Below are positions 2,722 through 43,856 of a stretch of 64,000 nucleotides of DNA, piece after piece. The stretch lies in assembly GCA_951406725.2 (NCBI GenBank), contig OX597828.1, positions 42,966,001 through 43,030,000 of the forward strand. Reading direction: 5' to 3'. The DNA comes from Octopus vulgaris (lineage: Eukaryota). Under the pieces are notes generated by a model. It ran no database searches and had not been told where the DNA came from. It was given only the letters and a program-made list of their open reading frames with translations. The translations under genes were made by a program, and so were the position numbers. Every line of letters begins with the position of its first letter. The first letter of the stretch is position 1.

Positions 2722-3491
2722 TTATGTATATGTATATAGAGATATACTTATACATGTATATACAAACATACAAACATCTGTATATATATATGTGTGTGTA
2801 TAATATATATAGAGAGAGAGGAAGAGAGAGATAGAGGGTGAGAAAGAGAAAGAGGGATTATGCACATACATACAAATATACATACATATATACATACATA
2901 TATACATACAAACACACGTATACATGCATAGACAGTGTGGCCACACGTGTAAACCCTATCGCTCTAAACCAGTTTCTCCTACAGATATGGGTCACATACT
3001 CTTCATTTACGCACACACACGTGCTCTCATGCGCGCACACACACATACACGCACAGACATACACACATACACACACTCATAGAGCTACAAAGCCATACAA
3101 ACTGTTGTGTATGTGTATTTTTCCGTGTGTATATACCAGAACAGTCCTGAGGACACACAAGAATGCATATGTATATATTCCTCAATGTATGTATGTATGT
3201 ATGTATGTATGTATGTATGTATGTATGTATGTATGTATGTATGTATGTATGTATGTATACATGTATGTATGTATGTATGTATGTATGTATGTATGTATGT
3301 ATGTATGTATGAATGTATGTATGTATGTATGTATGTATGTATGAATGAATGCGTGTATGTGTGTATGTATGTATGTATGTATGCATGTATGTATATATGA
3401 ATGTATGTATGTATGTATGAATGAATGCGTGTATGTGTGTCCGTCCGTCTGTCTTTCTTTGTCTGTTTGTCAATCTATCTACCTCTCTCTT

Positions 3492-3567
<76 letters not shown>

Positions 3568-3585
3568 ACTATCTATCTATCTATT

Positions 3586-4807
3586 TGGCTCTATGTAGAC
3601 GACGGTGAACAGGTGTGGTCGCCGTTTGTGAGGCACGCTTTCCCGCAGCTCGTCTCCATGACCGAACTGCAGTCGTGGATCAAAAAGAGGCCGAGGAAGG
3701 GCGAATGGCACCGCGAGTGTCGCGTTGCTCTCAAGCAACTCTGCCGTCCTGGGTCGACCTTGAGTGACTTCAACACAACCAACGCATTCTATAGGGGTTT
3801 AGTGGAGGGGAGGTACGACGACGAGCTCGGGGCGAACCTGGACGTCGACGAGGAGTACCTGACCCGCCTGTTCAGGACGACTTTCGGGCCAGGGCCCATG
3901 GACAACTTCCAGAGATCCCTGGCCTGGCAGTGCTACCGAGAAGCGCTACCCGTTCGGGATAAGCTCTACAGACACGGCTCGAGAAACACGGGGCCGACCT
4001 GCCCGAGATGCGGTCAGAGCGACGAAACCGTTCTGCACGCACTCGTGCAGTGTCCAACAATTTCCGACCTGTGGGCTTATGTCGAACAACTGCTGTCACG
4101 TGTGGGACGAGTCGGTTTATCAGCTGAGTCTATCGTCAATATTGTCACGCCTCCTTCCTTCAAACGGGAAGGAAGAGCTATTTTCATCATCCTTGTGGCT
4201 ATGGTGAAAGAATGTATCTGGTGGACGCGTCTGAAAGGATTGGAGACAAACACTTTCCTCTCTGGTCAATCTCTCATCAACTTCTTCAAGTACCACTTGA
4301 AAAGGAAAGTGAGAGTAGAGAGGCAAGTTTTGTCTAGCGAATGTTTTAAAAAAAGATGGGTGAATGTAGCAAGAATGGCACGTATGAATGACGAAGCCAC
4401 CTTGAGCATAATCCTATGAACCCAGAAATTGAAAACAGAGAGTTGCTTATTCACAAAAAAAAAAAAAAAAAAAAAGAAATATAACATGTGACTTCATTGA
4501 CCGAGGTTACCGTGGTCTTTTCCGTAGGCTTTTCTTTCCACGGGTAAACCTCACCTGTCCTCCCCTTTACACTTCATATTGACATTTCTGTGATAACGAT
4601 CCCTATTGATCAAATTTTTTTTTTCTTCTCCCCCTTTTTTTTAACCCCCTCTTTTTTTTGTCCTCTTTCTCTCCTTTTACGATCCCTTTTGATCGAAACT
4701 CCCCCCTTCCTTTTTTCTTTTTTTTTTTTTTTAAACCTTCAAAAGAAAAGCTCTACCTTGTAATTTGTTCTATCTGTGTGCAGCCCTGTGTGGCTAATAA
4801 AGAAACA

Positions 4808-8399: not shown

Positions 8400-9378
8400 C
8401 AATGTTGATAGCCCTATCAAATCCCTAATTGGTAGAACATACCCATTTAGTAGAACCCCCTGTACGGATAGGAACTGTAGTGAGTATAGATATAGCTCAC
8501 AAACAAACTGTAGAACTAAAAATGTAGTCTATAGTATAAGATGTATAGAGGGACGATACAGTAACAAGACAACGACATACGTAGGGGAAACAGCACGGTG
8601 CATAGGAGAGCGGGTAAATGAACATTTGAGAGAACTTAAGGAAGAAAAGAGTTCATCGATTCTGTACCAACACGCCGAACAAGAACACGGAGTCTCACTC
8701 AACAACATAGAAGTTAAAATCTTGTCCACACATAGAACAAACGCAACAATCAAATTACGGAAGCTACACACATAATAGAAGATAAACCTAGCCTGAATAA
8801 GAAACTGGAATGGAACACTAGCACACGCCCCAACACACCACAGCATATGACAGAAGAAGATCCCCATAAACTGGTAACAATATAAACAAAACGAAAAACA
8901 TAATAAAATACATAGATAAATAAATAAATGGAAGTAAATAACTATATACATTAAAAAAAATTAACTAAATACAAAAAAAATAATAAGTAGGTGTAAACAC
9001 ACGAACAAAATAAAAATAAACAAAAACAAATTACACGAACGTGCATAAAGAGGAGTTACAAATATTAGAGGCACTCCCCACCACTGACTAAAAATAGACA
9101 CACATAGAGGTATACGCATGCGCAAATGAAGACACATACAATAGGAATACAAAATACAAAATGGCTGACCGTTAGTAAGGAGAGACACACAAATAAGAAA
9201 GAAGAAAGCAAAGGACCACTGATGAGGTCACAGTAGTGTGACGAAAGAACTCTGGCCGAAATAAGATTAAGATTAATGTAAAAAATAAATAACGCTGAAG
9301 CAAATTAACACCAAATATAGAGTGCGTGTGTTTTTATTGGCTAAACTGCCAAAATGACCATTCCTAAATACAACAACA

Positions 9379-9380
<2 letters not shown>
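8400..9380 (+). mobile_element. Older, degenerate 5'-truncated copy of the same PLE family (GIY-YIG region + 3' UTR)
   Basis: Clear similarity to ~30940-32051 (e.g. gtctatagtataagatgtatagagggac, tcatcgattctgtaccaacacgccgaacaagaacacgg, ttggctaaactg), with frameshifts. Ends in (TA)n. Confidence 0.9.
9213..9257 (+). ncRNA. Minimal type-I hammerhead ribozyme (PLE pLTR)
   Basis: cca CTGATGA g gtcaca-gtag-tgtgac GAAAG aa CTC tgg. Confidence 0.75.
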
Positions 9381-9433: not shown

Positions 9434-9610
9434 GAAGAAAAACACAACGCATGGACGTGGTACATGCAAAGTATTAGCAGACGCTCAGGGAAGGAAAGAA
9501 AAGGAGTTTTACGTTTCGAGTAAAGCACTTCTTCAGAAACAGGAGACAGAGGGGAGTCCAAGAGAAAAAGGAAAACGAAGGAAAATAATTGCCAACGATC
9601 CACATGTGGT

Positions 9611-10706: not shown

Positions 10707-10714
<8 letters not shown>

Positions 10715-10853
10715 ATATTTCGGAATGGTCATATTGCCAGTTTAGCCAATAAAAACACACGCACTATATATTTGGTGTTATTCCGAAATATAACAATATC
10801 TGTTTCAACACACGACTTCACATAAAAAATCTTGCACAACAAATATTTAAACG

Positions 10854-10855
<2 letters not shown>
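10707..10855. mobile_element. 149-bp miniature of the young PLE (inverted pLTR end + forward tail) in (TA)n
   Basis: 10707-10782 is the reverse complement of 31976-32051, and 10780-10855 matches 32032-32107. ATT microhomology at the junction; (TA)n on both sides. Confidence 0.9.
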
Positions 10856-18105: not shown

Positions 18106-18572
18106 CTAGCAGCATCGCCCGGCGTTGCCCGGGTATGTAAGAGCCCCTAGTAGGCAACGACTAATCTCAATCTAGTCCTTTCCCTCTAGGGAACGAAGGC
18201 GCATGTGTAGGTTGCAATCGATTTTTTTTCTGATGGTAAGGAATTGCATGGAAAACTAACGTCAGAATTAAGTTCCTTAGGATAACATTAAGCTTCACCG
18301 TGAGTTTGGTGAAAATCGATTGCAAGTTGCGAAAACTACAACAGAAAATGTGTTGCATATAAAAAGCTTAGATTCTCGACCCCATGTCGAATTTATCGCT
18401 TTTTTCAGAACTGGGGGAACTTTGCAAAATGTTCGCTGCGTTAGTTTTGAATTATGACATTGGGCTATGTGTGTGTCAAGTTTCATCAGAATCGGTTGAA
18501 AGCCGTGATCAGGGTGAGAGTACAACCTGACAGACACACATACAGACAAACTGCCGTTTATATAGAGAGAGA
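18106..18572 (-). mobile_element. Non-autonomous Helitron-like element
   Basis: 5' TC, 3' CTAG with GC-rich subterminal hairpin (cccgggcaacgccggg); homologous to 32399-32783. Confidence 0.75.
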
Positions 18573-19074
18573 TACCTTATACAAATCTAAACCGTTCTTG
18601 CACTGTACTTTTCTTATCTGTTTCCCTGTCTTCGTTCGTCAATCACACCAGCTCAGGTTCATAGTCATAACAGCTTTTGTTGCTGACACGCTCAGAAGCA
18701 AAACAATGGCACTTATTTCTAACAAAGTACTCTCAAACAGATGTTTATAATTCTTGGTGGTGGTGGTGGTGGGGCATGTAAATCAGTGGGCCAAAGGTAG
18801 GTGGTCGCCTCCAGTGGCGGAAAACAACATTACTATGATATTTACGTTCTATTCTGCCGAAGCATATTTTGAATTGGTGCATACTTTATGATAGCGTATT
18901 TCACTTGTCTGCAACATGCAATTCCAATTTCGAAAAATATATACGTTTCCAGTTAACAGCAGCAACAATAACAGCATCAACAACTGTATATATATACATA
19001 TATATATGTTACACACACATACACACACACACACACATACACATACATACATGCATGCATGTATGCATGCATAT

Positions 19075-25320: not shown

Positions 25321-25384
<64 letters not shown>

Positions 25385-25392
<8 letters not shown>

Positions 25393-27431
25393 ATATTTCG
25401 GAATGGTCATATTGCCAGTTTAGCCAATAAAAACACACGCACTATATATTTGGTGTTATTTTGCTTCAGTGATATTTATTTTTTACATTAATCTTAATCT
25501 TATTTCGGCCAAAGTTCTTTCGTCACACTCCTGTGACCGCATCAGTGGTCCTTTGTTTTCTTCTCACTTACTTGTGTCTCTCCTTACTAACCGTCAGCCA
25601 TTTTGTATTTCTATTGTATGTCTTCATTTGCGCATGCTTATATCTCTATGTGCGTCTATGTTTATTTAGTGTGTGTGTGGGGGGATGCCTGTAATATTTG
25701 TATCTTCTGGTTATATACATTCTTGTAATTTGTATTTTGTTTTTGTTGTTGTTGCTTTTGTTCTAATTTTGTTCATGTGTTTACATCCACCCATTATCAT
25801 CATTACATATGCTTGTATGTATGTATAACAACAATATTAGTAATAATAATAATAAATCTAATCGAAAAAAAAAAAAAAAAAAAAAGAATATACATATACA
25901 CATATATATATACACACACATACATATACATATATATATACATATATACACACATATATACATATACATATATATACACATATACATATATATAGATATT
26001 CATTTCTATTTCTTTAATTACCTGTGTATTTATTATGTTTGCAGGATCCACTATTGTCATATGTTGTGGTGTGCGCTATTGCTCCATTCTAGTTTTCTAT
26101 TCAGGCTAGGTTTATTTTCTATTATATGTGTAGCTTCTGTAATTTGTCTAATTGTTGCATCTGTTCTATGTGTGGACAATATCTTAATCTCTATGTTATT
26201 GATTGATTCCCCGTGTTCTTGTTCGGCGTGTTGGTACAGAATCGATGAGCTTTTACCTTCCTTGAGTTGTCTCCAATGTTCATTCACCCGCTCACCAATG
26301 CTTCTTGCAGTTTCCCCTACGTATGTTACTGTCTTGTTACTGCATTGTCCCTCTATACATCTTATACTATAGACCACATTTCTGGCTTTACAGTTCGTTT
26401 GTGGGCTAAATCTACATACAGTGCAATAGTTATCCGTACAGAGAGTTCTACTAAAAGGATAGCTTCTACCAATTATAGATCTGATAGGGTTGCCTGGCTT
26501 TTCAACAACCTTAATTCTTAGTTTAAGTTTATCTAGGGTCCTTCTAAAGCGGTACGCTAGTTCACCTCCAGGGGTGGTGTCAACGAACATGACACTCTGG
26601 TATTTATGGCTATCATACCAAGAGTTGGCCTTCCCTATTTTCTTTTTTGTCCTTTCTATAGTGTTCCATGACTTGTTCCTATAGAGTGGGCAAATCCCAT
26701 TCCTATCATTACATAATATATTATCAAATTTTTTCATGGCTCCTTTGTATACTCTGATCCTTTCTTTATGGCTGTAACCTGAGAACTGCATGCGGTGAAT
26801 GAAATACTGTATGTGTCTCTTTAATTCTGTAGGCTCGCACATGCGTGACACATTTCTCATTATTCTGACGAGGTCTGCCATCAAAATATTGAATTTGGCA
26901 TTGCCCGCAATGGCTGAGTTCCGGTGGATCAGGTATTTTGAGGCCATAGGTTTTGCATAGTATGAATGAAGGATTTGGGTTTGGGTTTTATTTTTCACAA
27001 TTTCTAGCCAGAGTTCAGTGTCTAGTACTGGTAGTCTATGGTTGGGGTGTTTAGTGGGGTAGTCTATTGTGACCTTAATACTCTGGTGGATGGAGTTAGC
27101 TATTTGCTGGATGCTCTCCATAGTATTAGTTTCTATTACTATATCAACAGTACTCTCTTGTGGGGGTGCCTTTACTACTATATTGATATCATCAACATAG
27201 CGAGAGTACATGTTTACGAGTATGGATTTCTGCAGTAGGCATTCTTTAAGCCTTCTGTCCCACCATACCATGAAGAGGTTGGCCACATCACCAGCGATAC
27301 TAACACCGATGGCTGCCCCCTCGTCCTGGGCATATATTTTATTATTAAATTTAAATGTGTGGCCTTTTAGGGTAATTCTTATACTAGCTCCTAGTGCATG
27401 TGCGATCATTTTCTTTACCTGATGGACATTT
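25385..27431 (-). mobile_element. Inverted 5'-truncated copy of the same PLE (3' half of RT, GIY-YIG, 3' UTR/pLTR)
   Basis: Reverse complement of 30005-32051. ORF 26057..27409(-) equals the last 450 aa of the large ORF except one V/I change. Two 1-nt homopolymer differences are visible. TTT microhomology at the junction (27429-27431). Confidence 0.95.
25507..25551 (-). ncRNA. Hammerhead-like motif, mirror copy in the inverted PLE arm
   Basis: Reverse complement of 31885-31929. Confidence 0.7.
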
Positions 27432-27449
27432 ATTGGCTAAACTGGCAAT

Positions 27450-30400
27450 ATGACCATTCCGAAATATAACAATATCTGTTTCAACACACGACTTCACATA
27501 AAAAATCTTGCACAACAAATATTTAAACGTACTAACGTGAGCCACAGCCAGGCTTGCAAGATGCTGAAGAACACTATATTTTGTTGCCTAAAGAAAACTG
27601 TGACAACGCAACAGCTTCGTTTTATAAAACAATGTGTCTCGTCCAGGATATGTATCAACAAGGTCACAGCCAACGTTAAACGGCTTGACCTCACTAACGG
27701 ACAAGCGGAAAGACTAAAAAGGACGCTAATGGTAAATATTAGAAATAGAATATACAGAGAGCTGAGCGAACAAGAGAAGCGTAAACGTATATTTTTAAAA
27801 GAAATTAAAAGTATCACCACACGAAAGGAGAAAACCTTAATAATGGATATAATATATGAAGAAAACAGACATGTAATACACCAATGCAATATCCATTTTA
27901 AGAGGAAGTTATCGTGGTTGAAACAGAAACGTCAATATGAGCTCGCAAAGGAAAAAAAGCAGAAGTATCCAGATACAATAAATGGAATTATTATGGAAGA
28001 TGTGCTACTACCAGAAGAGTTCAATAAAGACAATGAAGCGAACATCTATGGGGGAGTAACAACGGACCCAGATGAAATATCGATACTTCAACTACCACCA
28101 AAGTATGCAGTGTATAGTAAAGTGAATACCATCAAATGCCTGTCCGAGATTGAAAAGTCGTTCACAAAAATACGTTGGAATTTAAATAGATACTATGACA
28201 ACAACACTTGCGACAACAACAACAACAACGCGAAAAACACTAACCGCAGCAACAACAACACAAACAATAATGACCGCAACAATAACAACCGTAGCAACAA
28301 AAGCAACACGAACCCTAACAGCGGCAACAACAACAACAACCCTAACAGCGACAACAACAATAACAATAGAAAAAATGTATGCATAGACACAAACAATAGA
28401 TACAAAAACAAAAACACAAACAGAGAGAGAAAAATCGTATACAACAGCAACAACAACAACAATTATAGGGAGAACCGACACACAAACACACACACATATA
28501 GCCATAGTCACAAAGACACGAATAAAAGTTGTGTCATAGGGGTCACGATGGAGAATAAAGTTGAATGCAACAGGATCCTTGGACAGGGAGTCAGCGGACT
28601 TGAAACAGATAACAATACTCATAGGAACAAAAATAACGACCGCAACAGGGGGATTGACAGGGACCAACAGACAGACATAAAACCCAACACTAATATAAAC
28701 AACACATATACCAGAAACAGGAACACTGAATATATCACTAGCGATGATAGTAATAATGGCAATGGTAGGAATAAAGGTAATAACAATAATAGTGGTAGTA
28801 GTAGTGGTGATGGTAACAGTAGAAGTAGTAATGAGGATAGTAGTGATAATTGTGGTGGTAATAGGAATACTAGTAGTAGTAGTAGTAGTGGTAATGGTGA
28901 TAATAATAATAGGAAGGCTGATGTTGGAAACAGTAACGATAATGAAGATAACCCTAGAGAGACCATTGACATGTATACCCATCCCTTTGACACTCAATTC
29001 TTCAACGTATGCGACAAAACTTACTGCATGAACCGAATTTATCCAACAACATTACCCTTCAACAAAAGAGTATACATCCCAAGACGTACTAATGACCACA
29101 TGGAAGCACAGTTCACTATAGCTAGGACCAAACTTAGACAGATTTTAGGATTATACATTAAGAGACAGAGACAGAATAAGACAGATGCCCAACAACTAGG
29201 GATTAAACCTGCATGTGGCCTACAGAAGCTCATTCAGCGCACGAGGAACGGAGAGGTGATATGCCTTCCCACGGATAAGTCCGGCAGGATGTCAATAGAC
29301 AGCTTACCGAACTACATCCAGGCAATGCAACCTCATATCGCCAATACAAAAGTAACAACTGTACAGGCGCATGAGGAGAGAGAAAAGGTCCTCAATGCCC
29401 ACATGATGATGTGGACAATTGTTCTGGGACTTCAGAAACGTACTGCAAAGAATTTCCAAGCCTGGAACAATGATATCCCGGCACTGTATGGACTTCGCAA
29501 GGACCATAAAGGTTTTACTGACCCTATAGCAGGACCACCAACAAGACCAGTCTGTGGAGCGAATATCGCTAGCAATTACAGAATCTCCTACTTCCTCTCA
29601 ATGATCATACGCCCTATAATCAGGATGTCACCTGATGTGTGTGACAGCACAGAAGATCTCCTAAGCAGGATCAGTGACTGTAACAAAACTTGTGACTTGA
29701 CAGGATGTATAGTAGGTAGCATGGATGTGGTATCCCTATACCCATCGATTGACGTAGATTTTGCAGTGGAGAAGTGCGTGGAGATGATCAACGAGAGCCA
29801 GGTGGAGTTCTGTAATGTCGACACAGAAGAACTGGGCCTCCTACTTAGACTGACATATAATAGTGAATACTTAGATAAACATAATCTTAGTAGTTTCTGC
29901 CCCAGTAGATGTTTAAGAGGTAGACCGCCTACAATTACTTCTATGGCTAGGAAGACACATATAGAAAGATGGCGCGGATGGACCAGAGCCATACGGAGCC
30001 CCGCAAATGTCCATCAGGTAAAGAAAATGATCGCACATGCACTAGGAGCTAGTATAAGAGTTACCCTAAAAGGCCACACATTTAAATTTAATAATAAAAT
30101 ATATGCCCAGGACGAGGGGGCAGCCATCGGTGTTAGTATCGCTGGTGATGTGGCCAACCTCTTCATGGTATGGTGGGACAGAAGGCTTAAAGAATGCCTA
30201 CTGCAGAAATCCATACTCGTAAACATGTACTCTCGCTATGTTGATGATATCAATATAGTAGTAAAGGCACCCCCACAAGAGAGTACTGTTGATATAGTAA
30301 TAGAAACTAATACTATGGAGAGCATCCAGCAAATAGCTAACTCCATCCACCAGAGTATTAAGGTCACAATAGACTACCCCACTAAACACCCCAACCATAG

Positions 30401-31379
30401 ACTACCAGTACTAGACACTGAACTCTGGCTAGAAATTGTGAAAAATAAAACCCAAACCCAAATCCTTCATTCATACTATGCAAAACCTATGGCCTCAAAA
30501 TACCTGATCCACCGGAACTCAGCCATTGCGGGCAATGCCAAATTCAATATTTTGATGGCAGACCTCGTCAGAATAATGAGAAATGTGTCACGCATGTGCG
30601 AGCCTACAGAATTAAAGAGACACATACAGTATTTCATTCACCGCATGCAGTTCTCAGGTTACAGCCATAAAGAAAGGATCAGAGTATACAAAGGAGCCAT
30701 GAAAAAATTTGATAATATATTATGTAATGATAGGAATGGGATTTGCCCACTCTATAGGAACAAGTCATGGAACACTATAGAAAGGACAAAAAAGAAAATA
30801 GGGAAGGCCAACTCTTGGTATGATAGCCATAAATACCAGAGTGTCATGTTCGTTGACACCACCCCTGGAGGTGAACTAGCGTACCGCTTTAGAAGGACCC
30901 TAGATAAACTTAAACTAAGAATTAAGGTTGTTGAAAAGCCAGGCAACCCTATCAGATCTATAATTGGTAGAAGCTATCCTTTTAGTAGAACTCTCTGTAC
31001 GGATAACTATTGCACTGTATGTAGATTTAGCCCACAAACGAACTGTAAAGCCAGAAATGTGGTCTATAGTATAAGATGTATAGAGGGACAATGCAGTAAC
31101 AAGACAGTAACATACGTAGGGGAAACTGCAAGAAGCATTGGTGAGCGGGTGAATGAACATTGGAGACAACTCAAGGAAGGTAAAAGCTCATCGATTCTGT
31201 ACCAACACGCCGAACAAGAACACGGGGAATCAATCAATAACATAGAGATTAAGATATTGTCCACACATAGAACAGATGCAACAATTAGACAAATTACAGA
31301 AGCTACACATATAATAGAAAATAAACCTAGCCTGAATAGAAAACTAGAATGGAGCAATAGCGCACACCACAACATATGA
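27450..31379 (+). CDS. Penelope-like retroelement polyprotein (reverse transcriptase + C-terminal GIY-YIG endonuclease), probably Naiad clade; intact
   Basis: Uninterrupted 1309-aa ORF. PLE RT motifs: TDKSGR (DKG-equivalent), LYGLRKDHK, PPTRPV, SMDVVSLYPSI, QDEGAAIGVSIAG..A..FM..WD, RYVDD, LPVLD, YYAKP. These are followed by a Cys knuckle (CTDNYCTVC) and a GIY-YIG domain (NVVYSIRC..C..YVGETAR..ER..EH..HAEQEH..E..I..P.LN). Confidence 0.95.
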   Translation: MTIPKYNNICFNTRLHIKNLAQQIFKRTNVSHSQACKMLKNTIFCCLKKTVTTQQLRFIKQCVSSRICINKVTANVKRLDLTNGQAERLKRTLMVNIRNRIYRELSEQEKRKRIFLKEIKSITTRKEKTLIMDIIYEENRHVIHQCNIHFKRKLSWLKQKRQYELAKEKKQKYPDTINGIIMEDVLLPEEFNKDNEANIYGGVTTDPDEISILQLPPKYAVYSKVNTIKCLSEIEKSFTKIRWNLNRYYDNNTCDNNNNNAKNTNRSNNNTNNNDRNNNNRSNKSNTNPNSGNNNNNPNSDNNNNNRKNVCIDTNNRYKNKNTNRERKIVYNSNNNNNYRENRHTNTHTYSHSHKDTNKSCVIGVTMENKVECNRILGQGVSGLETDNNTHRNKNNDRNRGIDRDQQTDIKPNTNINNTYTRNRNTEYITSDDSNNGNGRNKGNNNNSGSSSGDGNSRSSNEDSSDNCGGNRNTSSSSSSGNGDNNNRKADVGNSNDNEDNPRETIDMYTHPFDTQFFNVCDKTYCMNRIYPTTLPFNKRVYIPRRTNDHMEAQFTIARTKLRQILGLYIKRQRQNKTDAQQLGIKPACGLQKLIQRTRNGEVICLPTDKSGRMSIDSLPNYIQAMQPHIANTKVTTVQAHEEREKVLNAHMMMWTIVLGLQKRTAKNFQAWNNDIPALYGLRKDHKGFTDPIAGPPTRPVCGANIASNYRISYFLSMIIRPIIRMSPDVCDSTEDLLSRISDCNKTCDLTGCIVGSMDVVSLYPSIDVDFAVEKCVEMINESQVEFCNVDTEELGLLLRLTYNSEYLDKHNLSSFCPSRCLRGRPPTITSMARKTHIERWRGWTRAIRSPANVHQVKKMIAHALGASIRVTLKGHTFKFNNKIYAQDEGAAIGVSIAGDVANLFMVWWDRRLKECLLQKSILVNMYSRYVDDINIVVKAPPQESTVDIVIETNTMESIQQIANSIHQSIKVTIDYPTKHPNHRLPVLDTELWLEIVKNKTQTQILHSYYAKPMASKYLIHRNSAIAGNAKFNILMADLVRIMRNVSRMCEPTELKRHIQYFIHRMQFSGYSHKERIRVYKGAMKKFDNILCNDRNGICPLYRNKSWNTIERTKKKIGKANSWYDSHKYQSVMFVDTTPGGELAYRFRRTLDKLKLRIKVVEKPGNPIRSIIGRSYPFSRTLCTDNYCTVCRFSPQTNCKARNVVYSIRCIEGQCSNKTVTYVGETARSIGERVNEHWRQLKEGKSSSILYQHAEQEHGESINNIEIKILSTHRTDATIRQITEATHIIENKPSLNRKLEWSNSAHHNI

Positions 31380-31884
31380 CAATAGTGGATCCTGCAAACA
31401 TAATAAATACACAGGTAATTAAAGAAATAGAAATGAATATCTATATATATGTATATGTGTATATATATGTATATGTATATATGTGTGTATATATGTATAT
31501 ATATATGTATATGTATGTGTGTGTATATATATATGTGTATATGTATATTCTTTTTTTTTTTTTTTTTTTTCGATTAGATTTATTATTATTATTACTAATA
31601 TTGTTGTTATACATACATACAAGCATATGTAATGATGATAATGGGTGGATGTAAACACATGAACAAAATTAGAACAAAAGCAACAACAACAAAAACAAAA
31701 TACAAATTACAAGAATGTATATAACCAGAAGATACAAATATTACAGGCATCCCCCCCACACACACACTAAATAAACATAGACGCACATAGAGATATAAGC
31801 ATGCGCAAATGAAGACATACAATAGAAATACAAAATGGCTGACGGTTAGTAAGGAGAGACACAAGTAAGTGAGAAGAAAACAAA

Positions 31885-31929
31885 GGACCACTGATGCGGT
31901 CACAGGAGTGTGACGAAAGAACTTTGGCC
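31885..31929 (+). ncRNA. Minimal type-I hammerhead ribozyme-like motif in PLE 3' pLTR (A9C variant)
   Basis: ggacca CTGATGC g gtcaca-ggag-tgtgac GAAAG aa CTT tggcc: core boxes, 6-bp stem II, stem I cca/tgg. The older copy at 9213 has the canonical CTGATGA. Confidence 0.7.
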
Positions 31930-32220
31930 GAAATAAGATTAAGATTAATGTAAAAAATAAATATCACTGAAGCAAAATAACACCAAATATATAGTGCGTG
32001 TGTTTTTATTGGCTAAACTGGCAATATGACCATTCCGAAATATAACAATATCTGTTTCAACACACGACTTCACATAAAAAATCTTGCACAACAAATATTT
32101 AAACGTACTATATATATATATATATATATATAAAATACAAAATGGGGCAAGACCGGTCTCTCTCTATATGTGTGTGTGTGTGTGTGTGTGTGCGTATATA
32201 TGTGTATTTATAAGTATCTA

Positions 32221-32258
<38 letters not shown>

Positions 32259-32398
32259 TTATATATACATACATATATATATGCTCAGCTATAGAAATGT
32301 ATATATATAATTATTTGAGGGAATATTAATCCTAACTTACAGGGAAAAAATTCAATTTAGAAATACTAAATCAAATTTCACGCAATATAATATATATA

Positions 32399-32783
32399 TC
32401 TCTCTATATATAAACGGCAGTTTGTCTGTGCGTGTTTCTGTGTGTCTGTTTGCTTGTACCCTCACCCTGACCACGGCTTTCAACCGATTCTGATGAAACT
32501 TGACACACACATAGCCCAATGTCATAATTCAAAACTAACGCAGCCAAAATTTTGAAAAGTTCCCCCAGTTCTGAAAAAAATCGATAAATTCGACATGGGG
32601 TCGAGAATTAGAAACACGAACCACAAACTGTCTAGGGGACGCAACTCCATCCTTTTTTAACTCTCAAAAAAAATTTACCATCATTTTTTTCCATTTTTTT
32701 GCTATTTTTTGGCTATAACTCTCTAAAAATGTTTTATAGTTATTTCCCTTACAAACCTGAGCAACGCCGGGCGATACTGCTAG
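32399..32783 (+). mobile_element. Non-autonomous Helitron-like element
   Basis: A|TC...hairpin...CTAG|T termini; homologous to 18106-18572. Confidence 0.75.
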
Positions 32784-36445: not shown

Positions 36446-37869
36446 ATCTGTTACATGTTGGTTTTTATTTGACATCGCTTTCCCTATTGACCTTCACCAT
36501 CCACCACATCACTTTATATACATATGTATATATATGTATATATATGTTTGCTAAATAATTCGAAACCTAGGTATATAACCGTAAAAAAATAAAAAAGGTA
36601 AAAGTTTTTATTTTTCATTCCCTTCGAAAATTGCTGTTAAATGTGGTAGATTCGTAAATAATGGTGCAAAGTAGCACCCGCAATTCCTAGAAATAAGAGC
36701 TAAAAACTATAACTCGAACAGTCACACAAAATCACCAACCTCGTGAGATATTCAAGCAGCAAGCCACAGCATCTTTCTTCGGCGGGATAAGCTCACAGAA
36801 GGAAGTAGTTTGATAAAACTCTGTCACGTGGTTTCGAAATTTAACTAGCATGGTTTTGTTTCTCCTCCGGTGTTTCCATAATTTACTCCGGTTGAAAGAG
36901 ATAGTTTGTTTCACAAATGCTCATAAGGGATACAATCCCCCTACGAACACGCGCACGCACACACGTACACACACATATATACATACATACATAATACAGA
37001 CCTTTAGGAAAAGCAACTTTAGTTGCCAAACCGTGGGTTGTATAGTGACTGTCAGCTTATCGAAATCATTTTTAATTTCAGTATCGGAAGAAATGGGTTA
37101 ATTATGATGTTAATAAACACGTTTTGTCCACCTTTTGTGATTTGTACTAGCTGATGATATGATCAAAGCTTACTAACTTCCTAGTATTGGATCCTGGGAT
37201 TATTCATTTCTACTATATACTCATTTATATATATATGTATATATATAATGACAATAATAATATTAGGGAGTATAACTCCAAACTTACAGGGAAAATTTCA
37301 ATTTAGTATTAGATCAAATTTCGCTATATAAATATATAATGCATAATAGTGTTTTTTCTCTCTAATTTATATATTATATGTGTGTGTATATATGTATATA
37401 TATATATATATATATATTGCTACATCTTGACAGATGATAGCCGTCCCATAAACACACCACATACCATCACATAGTACAATCACTCCGTTGATGAGCCCTT
37501 ATATGACTTTTAAGACCAGCTGCTGACAGAGTTTAAAATACAAGTGACAGCTATTAATCAAGTTTTTTCTATATCTTTTCCCTTTGGTATCTGATTCTGA
37601 AGGAATGTTTTGTGAACTAGCATATGACTTTCAAGTCCAGATATTATCTTACAAGATTTTTATCATATGACACAAGTCGTAAGAAGTAGTTGGTGTCCAA
37701 GATCATTACCTGTCTGGGCATTACGACTTTCATGTGACTTCATATAGTTTACGTATCCTGTTTTGACAACAGAACACGGTCACATATAATACTTATCCAA
37801 TGTTCACTGTTAATTGCAATTCCAATTGTTTCTTTTGCGACTGGTCCTTTTAAACTCACAGTGCATGAA

Positions 37870-42832: not shown

Positions 42833-43661
42833 TCTATGTTTGACTTTTGCTTTATGTCTGTACAAGTTGGCTCCAAGTCTCACCCAGAGACCTCAAGAGA
42901 CAACAGGTTGGAAGTTCTGTGCCATATATTTGGTGGGTTTTTTTTGGTGTTGTACTAGTGAATGTCTAATACATAAAAATAAAAAATAAATAAATTTAAA
43001 AAAATAAATAAATAAATAAAAAAAAAAAAGTTTGTTTTAAACCTTGGGATTACATAGAGAGTATTTTGCGTAGGATATGAGCACTATCTTTTGAATTTCT
43101 GCCATTTTGGGGTTTCCTGGTATCTGAGTTAGGTAGCAATCAGTCCCTTTCGCTATCATTCCCAGGGCACCTATGACAACAGGTATTGTTTTAGTCTTCA
43201 GCTTCCACATTTTGCTGATTTCTATTTCAAGATCTTTATATTTTCTCAGTTTTTGGTAGGTCTTGACAGATACGTTTATATCGATTGGGACAGTCATATC
43301 AATGAGGAGGCATGTTCTTTGTCTGAAGTCTTTCAATATAATGTCTGGCCTATTTGCATCTATCTTCCTGTCAGTTTGAATGGTGAAGTTCCAGAGGAGT
43401 GAGATGTGGTCATTTTCAAGCACAGGAGGTGGATTGTGTTCCCACCAGTTTTTTTCATGGGGCAAATCCAGGTTTTTGCAAATTACCCAGTGAATATATT
43501 GTGCTGCTCTATCATGCCTACTCAGGTACTCTGTAGGCGCTAGAAGACTGCATTTGGAGACAACATGGTCAATGGTTTCATTTTGTTGTCGGCATACACG
43601 ACATGTTGGGCTACTGCCGTTCTTTAATATGTTGGCCTGGTAGTTTCTTGTTGGTAGGCAT
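42833..43661 (-). mobile_element. 5'-truncated R4/Dong-like LINE (CCHC knuckle + restriction-like endonuclease + 3' UTR)
   Basis: CRVC..ETIDHVVSKC..RHD..RPDI..LLIDMTVP..K..KYKDL..IPVVIGALG; (TAA)n on both sides. Confidence 0.85.
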
Positions 43662-43856
43662 TGATTATTATTATTATTCAGGTGACTGCTTGGAATCGAA
43701 CTCGGAATCTTGGAGTTAGTATGGTGAAAAGGAGGAGTAACTGTAATATTGAAATTTTTTTTAGTTTTTAATCCACTATATAACTCTTTGTCTACAATAT
43801 ATATAACATAGTCGAACAATTATGCCCCGTTCTTTCGTTTAGTGAACATTAAAATA

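Follow-up and report, generated by a model that had tools for sequence, protein, structure and literature searches.

How did a 6.7-kb insertion in the Octopus vulgaris genome acquire two long, almost identical arms pointing in opposite directions, and what kind of element is it? The insertion occupies positions 25385 to 32110 of a 64-kb stretch (contig OX597828.1 of assembly GCA_951406725.2, 42,966,001 to 43,030,000, forward strand), which is referred to here as the window and is numbered from its first base. The original prediction described it as a young Penelope-like element (PLE) of the Naiad clade, forming a fold-back structure inside (TA)n. The best explanation, to which we give a probability of about 0.75, is that it is an intact PLE with a C-terminal GIY-YIG nuclease, that it represents a single recent insertion into (TA)n made from two head-to-head cDNAs, and that its reverse transcriptase (RT) belongs to a lineage near Nematis. 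The interest of the element is its enzyme lineage, not the fold-back. It is a young and intact member of a distinct PLE lineage, of which no description was found in the literature searched.

Self-comparison of the window demonstrates that the left arm is the reverse complement of 30005-32051 over 2047 bp, with one substitution (27376/30060) and two single-base homopolymer differences, giving 99.85% identity. The inverted match stops exactly at both arm ends, and does not extend on either side. The arm is joined to a direct copy whose first 106 bases are identical (106/106) to the pseudo-long terminal repeat (pseudo-LTR) sequence near the right end, which defines a unit of 4576 bp, and three nucleotides (TTT) are common to the inverted arm and the direct copy at the junction. 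(TA)n touches both outer ends of the insertion. All of these features had been predicted, and their coordinates were reproduced almost to the base (Table 1). The fold-back itself is no special structure but ordinary for a PLE: standard PLE anatomy includes 5'-truncated copies in inverted orientation, pseudo-LTRs and a tail on one side, and the shape is the usual footprint of PLE insertion (PMC8557442, PMC3846280). The geometry of the arms makes it possible that read-through transcription yields 2 kb of double-stranded RNA.

Table 1. Positions of the insertion, its parts and its relatives within the window.
Positions	Strand	Feature	Basis or comparison
8412..9379	+	Older 5'-truncated relative, 82-83% identical, frameshifted, canonical hammerhead core	
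10707..10855	.	Mini copy of same family and architecture, 149 bp, in (TA)n	
25339..25388	.	(TA)n run, left end; (TACA)n before it from 25174	
25385..27431	-	Inverted 5'-truncated copy, ends at 32051, without tail	Self-comparison
25507..25551	-	Mirror copy of minimal hammerhead	Custom descriptor
27429..27431	.	TTT microhomology, inverted arm/direct copy	
27429..27534	+	5' partial pseudo-LTR, 106 bp, contains ATG, no hammerhead	Identical to 32005-32110
27450..31379	+	Single open reading frame, 1309 aa: N-terminal domain, Asn-rich linker, RT, thumb, Cys linker, C-terminal GIY-YIG	
28197..28955	+	Asn-rich in-frame expansion, 84 N in 253 aa	
29271..30248	+	RT core: TDKS 29271, motif 3 29718, motif 4 with IG 30108, YVDD 30237	
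29814..30035	+	Conserved insertion of ~74 aa between RT motifs 3 and 4	Telomerase insertion-in-fingers position
30996..31343	+	Short CX4CxxC linker and GIY-YIG nuclease, CCHH, catalytic R, H, E, N	Fig. S2 of PMC8557442
31885..31929	+	Minimal type I hammerhead motif, 3' untranslated region, core position 9 = C	Custom descriptor
32005..32110	+	3' pseudo-LTR portion repeated at 5' end	Self-comparison
32052..32107	+	Tail, 56 nt, right end only, missing from inverted arm	
32109..32132	.	(TA)n run, right end	

The assignment to the Penelope-like elements is confirmed. There is one open reading frame (ORF), coding for a PLE-type RT and a GIY-YIG nuclease, and its family profile matches canonical PLE proteins with E values of 1.7e-35 and 3.2e-38; pseudo-LTR, inverted 5'-truncated copy and one-sided tail are all present, and a putative hammerhead of the minimal type lies near the 3' end. 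The ORF is intact, as predicted. The frame is open from stop to stop over 27441-31379 (1312 aa), or 1309 aa counted from the ATG, which is probably the true start because the older copy in the window retains it together with the first nine codons (at 9354), with silent changes only. The RT comes first and the nuclease last. GIY-YIG occupies residues 1202-1301 of the 1312-aa frame, with the CCHH residues at 1213, 1218, 1256 and 1261. No GIY-YIG-like pattern occurs in the first 1100 residues, and no CxC motif in the first 610, that is, upstream of the RT.

Pfam gave no family for the ORF protein (P0001), and a PDB sequence search with this single protein found no match; with the family profile, the PDB matches were of RT motifs 4-5 to bacterial RTs, together with chance matches. 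The ESM Atlas returned PLE-like clusters without name or function.

The element is longer than its relatives, four of which have terminal direct repeats that define units of 3.4-3.8 kb, because its linker has grown by about 250 Asn-rich residues. The distance from PPK(F/Y) to TDKS is 393 aa here, compared with 129-168 in 46 of the 51 other scorable proteins and 222-375 in the remaining five. It is unlikely that this segment is an intron: it keeps the frame, its sense strand is rich in A, and contigs show indels of 3 and 6 nt there.

The unexpected part of the protein is the RT, in the region between its motifs 3 and 4. Measured with a start two residues ahead of the first catalytic aspartate and an end at the Q of motif 4, this span is 130 aa in the octopus element. 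It is 119-143 aa in every one of the 161 relative proteins, out of 295, in which both motifs were matched (the count includes P0001). Of 38 family loci, 16 have spans of 126-143, 21 could not be scored, and one gave a spurious value of 52 (L025, after a frameshift); among 42 weaker loci the span is 57-71 in 35. By a hand count in Fig. S1 of Craig et al. (PMC8557442), Penelope, Poseidon, Nematis and Neptune have spans of 59-62, Naiad-1_Skow has 86, Chlamys-1_tObl 121, and three telomerases 112, 117 and 151. The insertion thus resembles the insertion-in-fingers domain of telomerase RT in its position between motifs 3 and 4 and in the length of the span. It is 63-83 aa long in all 138 rows of alignment A1, is mildly basic, and has 12 of 74 positions conserved at 80% or more. 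By analogy, it is predicted to extend the fingers and help to hold the template or primer.

Together with TDKS, IG in motif 4 and WWD, these roughly 70 extra conserved residues mark a lineage. When the insertion columns were dropped, all 30 sampled long-span RTs still formed one clade in a 57-row tree (support 100/100, stem 1.03), and the stem is 1.0-1.2 substitutions per site across trees. Two proteins (P0307 and P0308) were left out of the tree, the motif not being matched. In a 25-row tree the clade joins Nematis-type rows at 85/60; the 57-row tree leaves its sister group unresolved. Judged from these sequences, the lineage most likely represents a deep sister of Nematis or an offshoot from it. 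The relatives comprise 318 cluster representatives at E <1e-30, mostly metagenome proteins. Hosts identified by name include Octopus, Argonauta hians and a jellyfish, Sanderia malayensis, the last two through matches not shown to span the insertion. Two PLE proteins carry a bacterial MAG label (P0339, in the cluster of P0044, and P0305), for which eukaryotic contamination is most likely, as Craig et al. warn (PMC8557442). A further group of PLEs (L042 and P0297-P0307), with SDKT, PMG, a short Cys linker and no fingers insertion, forms a clade of its own at 100/100, and is the best candidate for the sister of the long-span lineage.

With Nematis the element shares an RT followed by a C-terminal GIY-YIG, a short CX2-5CxxC linker and CCHH, and the VEKPG stretch before the linker resembles that of Nematis_Pp (PMC8557442). 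It differs in the span of 130 aa against 62, no insertion being expected in Nematis between motifs 3 and 4, in DKS against DKG or DKR, in IG against MG, and in its 1309-aa ORF with an Asn-rich linker. The long spacer of Neptune is missing, the distance from CxxC to the GIY-YIG core being 7 aa here and about 25-35 aa in the rows of Fig. S2 (PMC8557442). Penelope and Poseidon have no Cys-rich linker before the nuclease, and CX4CxxC is present here. Hydra elements lack CCHH and the insertion, have a CxCX5C linker and DKT, and are shorter than 3 kb (PMC8557442); the CCHH, CX4CxxC, DKS and 4.6-kb unit found here rule them out.

Elements from two other species provide further parallels. PAc, a Poseidon element of Anolis carolinensis (PMC11167929), likewise has a single RT-nuclease ORF starting in the pseudo-LTR, a hammerhead, AT-rich targets and two fixed 3' ends bounding a tail. 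Being of the Poseidon type, it is without the Cys linker and the fingers insertion, and the tail of 56 nt here compares with a usual 30-40. Pen2a, Pen3 and Pen4 of Adineta vaga (PMC3846280) have direct and inverted pseudo-LTRs, a tail, microhomology junctions and in-frame Asn-rich segments (25-30% N). They belong to the Penelope/Poseidon group, and their inserts of 460-554 aa lie between RT and thumb or nuclease, unlike the 253-aa Asn-rich segment of the octopus element, which is upstream of the RT.

On the basis of these comparisons we tentatively suggest, at somewhat less than even odds, that the long-span RTs represent an unnamed ninth PLE clade, large and widespread in marine animals, which combines a C-terminal nuclease with a fingers insertion of telomerase size, and of which the octopus element is a young intact member. 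Eight PLE clades are still listed in a 2026 preprint (10.64898/2026.07.22.740005). In the scheme of Craig et al. (PMC8557442), only those nuclease-bearing PLEs with an N-terminal nuclease have a fingers insertion, whose role is called unknown; PLEs with a C-terminal nuclease are stated to lack it. No C-terminal-nuclease PLE clade with a fingers insertion was described in the literature searched, Repbase, Dfam and Arkhipova (2006) being outside its scope, and PMC6515669 adds nothing on such a clade.

The strongest competing view is that a branch of Nematis or Neptune already on record, in Repbase for instance or in papers beyond those searched, includes the long-insertion RTs, so that only the family is new. 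This is possible, though less likely than not. The Nematis_Pp-like linker and VEKPG stretch and the leaning of the tree towards Nematis-type rows would fit it, as would the paraphyly of Neptune (PMC8557442) and the smaller inserts found at the same site in some Coprina (PMC8557442) and in Adineta Pen3 and Pen5a (PMC3846280). Moreover, the 31 recently active Penelope-like families counted in O. vulgaris lack a clade assignment (PMC13282606). Against it, Craig et al. show no C-terminal-nuclease PLE with an insertion, DKS and IG are unlike the three Nematis rows shown there (PMC8557442), the stem of the clade is long, and the literature search returned no description.

The insertion can be set beside other copies of its family. 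Within the window there are two more, a mini copy and an older relative (Table 1), and all three insertions abut (TA)n, which makes up 5.8% of the window. The mini copy consists of a 76-bp inverted piece ending at 32051 and a 76-bp direct piece ending at 32107, with an overlap of ATT and 100% identity. The older relative ends at the equivalent of 32051, four nucleotides before (TA)n. Over the nuclease it differs from the young copy by 23 silent and 32 amino-acid-changing codons, with 85 identical, a comparison confounded by decay and not used for selection. The best protein match of the ORF is an O. vulgaris gene model at 98%; of 26 Octopus gene models compared, 23 align over 133-796 aa at 89-99.6%, with 15 of them reaching at least 98%, and the matches are spread over at least a dozen contigs. 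The predicted association with microsatellites and the multi-copy nature of the family are thus both upheld.

In public data, the tested stretch was found in 20 runs from ten studies, and 19 of the runs contain half or more of its words. Contigs from four runs, compared from 27429 onwards, cover 30 of 30 bins, and the summed depth climbs steeply from 5' to 3', as expected from 5' truncation; summed depth is not a copy number. In run X2 a single 659-bp 5' unitig has a depth of 599, beside junction contigs at 12-25. These figures give only hints of tens of near-identical long copies. Among the loose ends listed (24 of about 2400 rows), contigs turn into TA repeats at 27531, equivalent to 32107 (21 contigs in X5), and at 27475, equivalent to 32051 (12 contigs in X10 and 9 in X7).

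The insertion is likely to be recent, judging by the divergence of its arms. One substitution in 2047 bp corresponds to about 0.07 million years (My; range 0.002-0.38) at a rate of 0.0036 per My (PMC13282606), and in this respect too the original prediction of a young element stands. Since 31 active families have already been counted in this species (PMC13282606), youth by itself is not surprising. Both arms carry the window alleles at 30704, 30878, 31040, 31090 and 31228, which are in the minority in all four runs, a pattern consistent with a single template lineage and a single event; this comparison carries the caveat that the window and the public runs may represent different populations.

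These observations suggest how the two arms could have arisen. The nuclease would make a nick in each strand of a (TA)n run, and two cDNAs would be primed from opposite strands, likely starting at two fixed RNA sites corresponding to 32107 and 32051. The first cDNA, of 4.68 kb, would cover the whole unit and run 106 nt into the preceding pseudo-LTR. The second would have halted after 2.05 kb, and the two would then be joined head-to-head through TTT. Because both arms cover the same part of the RNA, the model calls for two templates or two passes, which sets it apart from twin priming on a single RNA. The two fixed ends are supported by the mini copy, which shares both ends as well as a 3-nt overlap, and by the older copy, which ends at the second. 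There is a precedent in the work of Frangieh et al. (2024), in which a Poseidon PLE in vitro cleaved the two strands of AT-rich DNA, extended both, and initiated reverse transcription at two sites on the RNA, which bound the tail (PMC11167929). By this analogy, we infer that a model with two start sites may also apply to the octopus element.

The inverted arm might instead have formed without a second priming on RNA, either because the cDNA was copied back on itself or because a later second insertion was homogenised by gene conversion. We regard this as unlikely. The shared minority alleles and the near identity of the arms would suit any origin from a single template, and the steps after first-strand synthesis have not been validated even for the PLE studied in vitro (PMC11167929). 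However, copying back alone leaves unexplained why independent insertions stop 56 nt short at the same site, which two RNA start sites do explain. A fold-back artefact of assembly or of chimeric reads is much less likely still. The arms are indeed nearly identical, two of their three differences being homopolymer lengths, and the junction lacks read support in a comparison that began at 27429 and listed 15 of 127 joints; but the arm ends exactly at the second fixed end of the family, 32051, which recurs in two other copies in the window and in public contigs, the junction jumps 2 kb into the pseudo-LTR with no self-fold, the flanks differ, and the mini copy has the same design.

Least probable of all, and hardly tenable, is that the element belongs to Naiad, families of which are listed for Octopus and which share with it a preference for (TA)n, an insertion lying between motifs 3 and 4, CX2-5CxxC with CCHH, and inverted 5' copies with a tail: Naiad is defined by a GIY-YIG at the N-terminus, by CxC and DKA motifs and by the lack of a canonical hammerhead (Craig et al. 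2021, PMC8557442), whereas here the C-terminal nuclease already refutes the assignment, CxC is absent, the motif is DKS, a minimal hammerhead is present, and the insertion is about 70 aa rather than about 20 (span 130 aa against about 86 in Naiad-1_Skow). The signs on which the prediction relied do not indicate Naiad: all Naiad rows of Fig. S1 have MG or QG in RT motif 4 rather than IG, TDKS is not the DKA of Naiad, and the Cys-rich linker has the short form typical of Nematis. A search of the supplement of PMC8557442 (Naiad, Chlamys and Hydra consensi) for two 15-nt words taken from the 3' end found neither, although a line break could hide a match.

The hammerheads require separate comment. 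Hammerhead-bearing ends had been predicted, and the custom descriptor used for the search found a putative hammerhead in the 3' untranslated region and its mirror copy in the inverted arm, but none in the 106-bp 5' repeat. Rfam gave no hammerhead at its gathering or E-value thresholds, and its microRNA matches in the window are microsatellite noise. The motif has stems I and II; it agrees with the PLE motifs of Cervera and de la Peña (2014; PMC4209133) in that helix I is short, helix II is long and an additional base precedes helix II. This copy has C in place of A at core position 9, which is canonical in the older copy (9213-9257); the core of the relative L012 is canonical as well. The folding energies of the hammerhead and terminal stem-loop are not better than those of shuffled sequences (z +0.28 to -1.52), and are therefore not counted as evidence. 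Two other hammerhead-core-like motifs, at 9536 and 37987 (both on the minus strand), are outside this family and are possibly the ends of other PLEs.

A number of points weigh against the explanation favoured here. The exact junction at 27430 and the flanks come from the assembly and not from independent reads, and the age may be underestimated because the polishing of an assembly can make near-identical arms uniform. For the stem-loop proposed at the start sites, the folding energy does not improve on that of shuffled sequences (z -0.49). The intact ORF is no proof of activity, because the 5' half of this copy has four amino-acid-changing differences from the majority of reads, its hammerhead core is non-canonical, and it retains only 106 bp of the upstream pseudo-LTR. 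In the trees, sisterhood with Neptune-type (p-AU 0.41) or Poseidon-type (p-AU 0.24) rows is not rejected, and the references were labelled by motif only and include no Naiad, Hydra or nematode Nematis rows. The likeness to telomerase is one of position and length only. No sequence similarity was found, as none of the 10 chains that the family profile matched in the PDB at E values up to 10 is of TERT or a PLE.

Some further observations concern annotation and the surrounding sequence. Many of the O. vulgaris models (P0123-P0125, P0270-P0289) are hypothetical proteins that begin at an internal Met, residue 511, and leave the element near residue 757, and this shared exit suggests a recurrent predicted splice donor. 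Models named as heparan-alpha-glucosaminide N-acetyltransferase (P0288 and P0290, O. vulgaris CAI9741621-2; P0284, O. sinensis XP_029654103) cluster with RT fragments. One of them, P0290, starts with residues 511-777 of the element protein at 99.6%, which could be a mis-annotation or an exonised copy. Elsewhere in the window, fragments of non-LTR retrotransposons with zf-RVT Pfam matches lie at 3421-4419 (+) and 43037-43819 (-). The right flank beyond the TA run (32290-32700) contains further dispersed repeats, which are matched elsewhere in the window at 18372-18574 (91%) and, more weakly (75-78%), at 37228, 13928 and 14462.

For annotation, the relevance of the element is that Pfam misses the whole ORF, and that pieces of it are held in O. 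vulgaris gene models as hypothetical proteins. With its hundreds of relatives in databases, a C-terminal nuclease and a conserved insertion of about 70 aa, such a lineage would have to be accommodated in the clade scheme of the PLEs, and it would bear on whether the fingers domain is ancestral or was gained repeatedly. The RTs of PLEs are the sister group of telomerase RT. If the long-span lineage is indeed a clade of its own, the rule that PLEs with a C-terminal nuclease lack the fingers insertion would be overturned, and a single-ORF enzyme would be available for testing the role of this insertion outside telomerase. The intact ORF and the two sharp ends of the octopus element also make the model of two start sites testable in a second clade.

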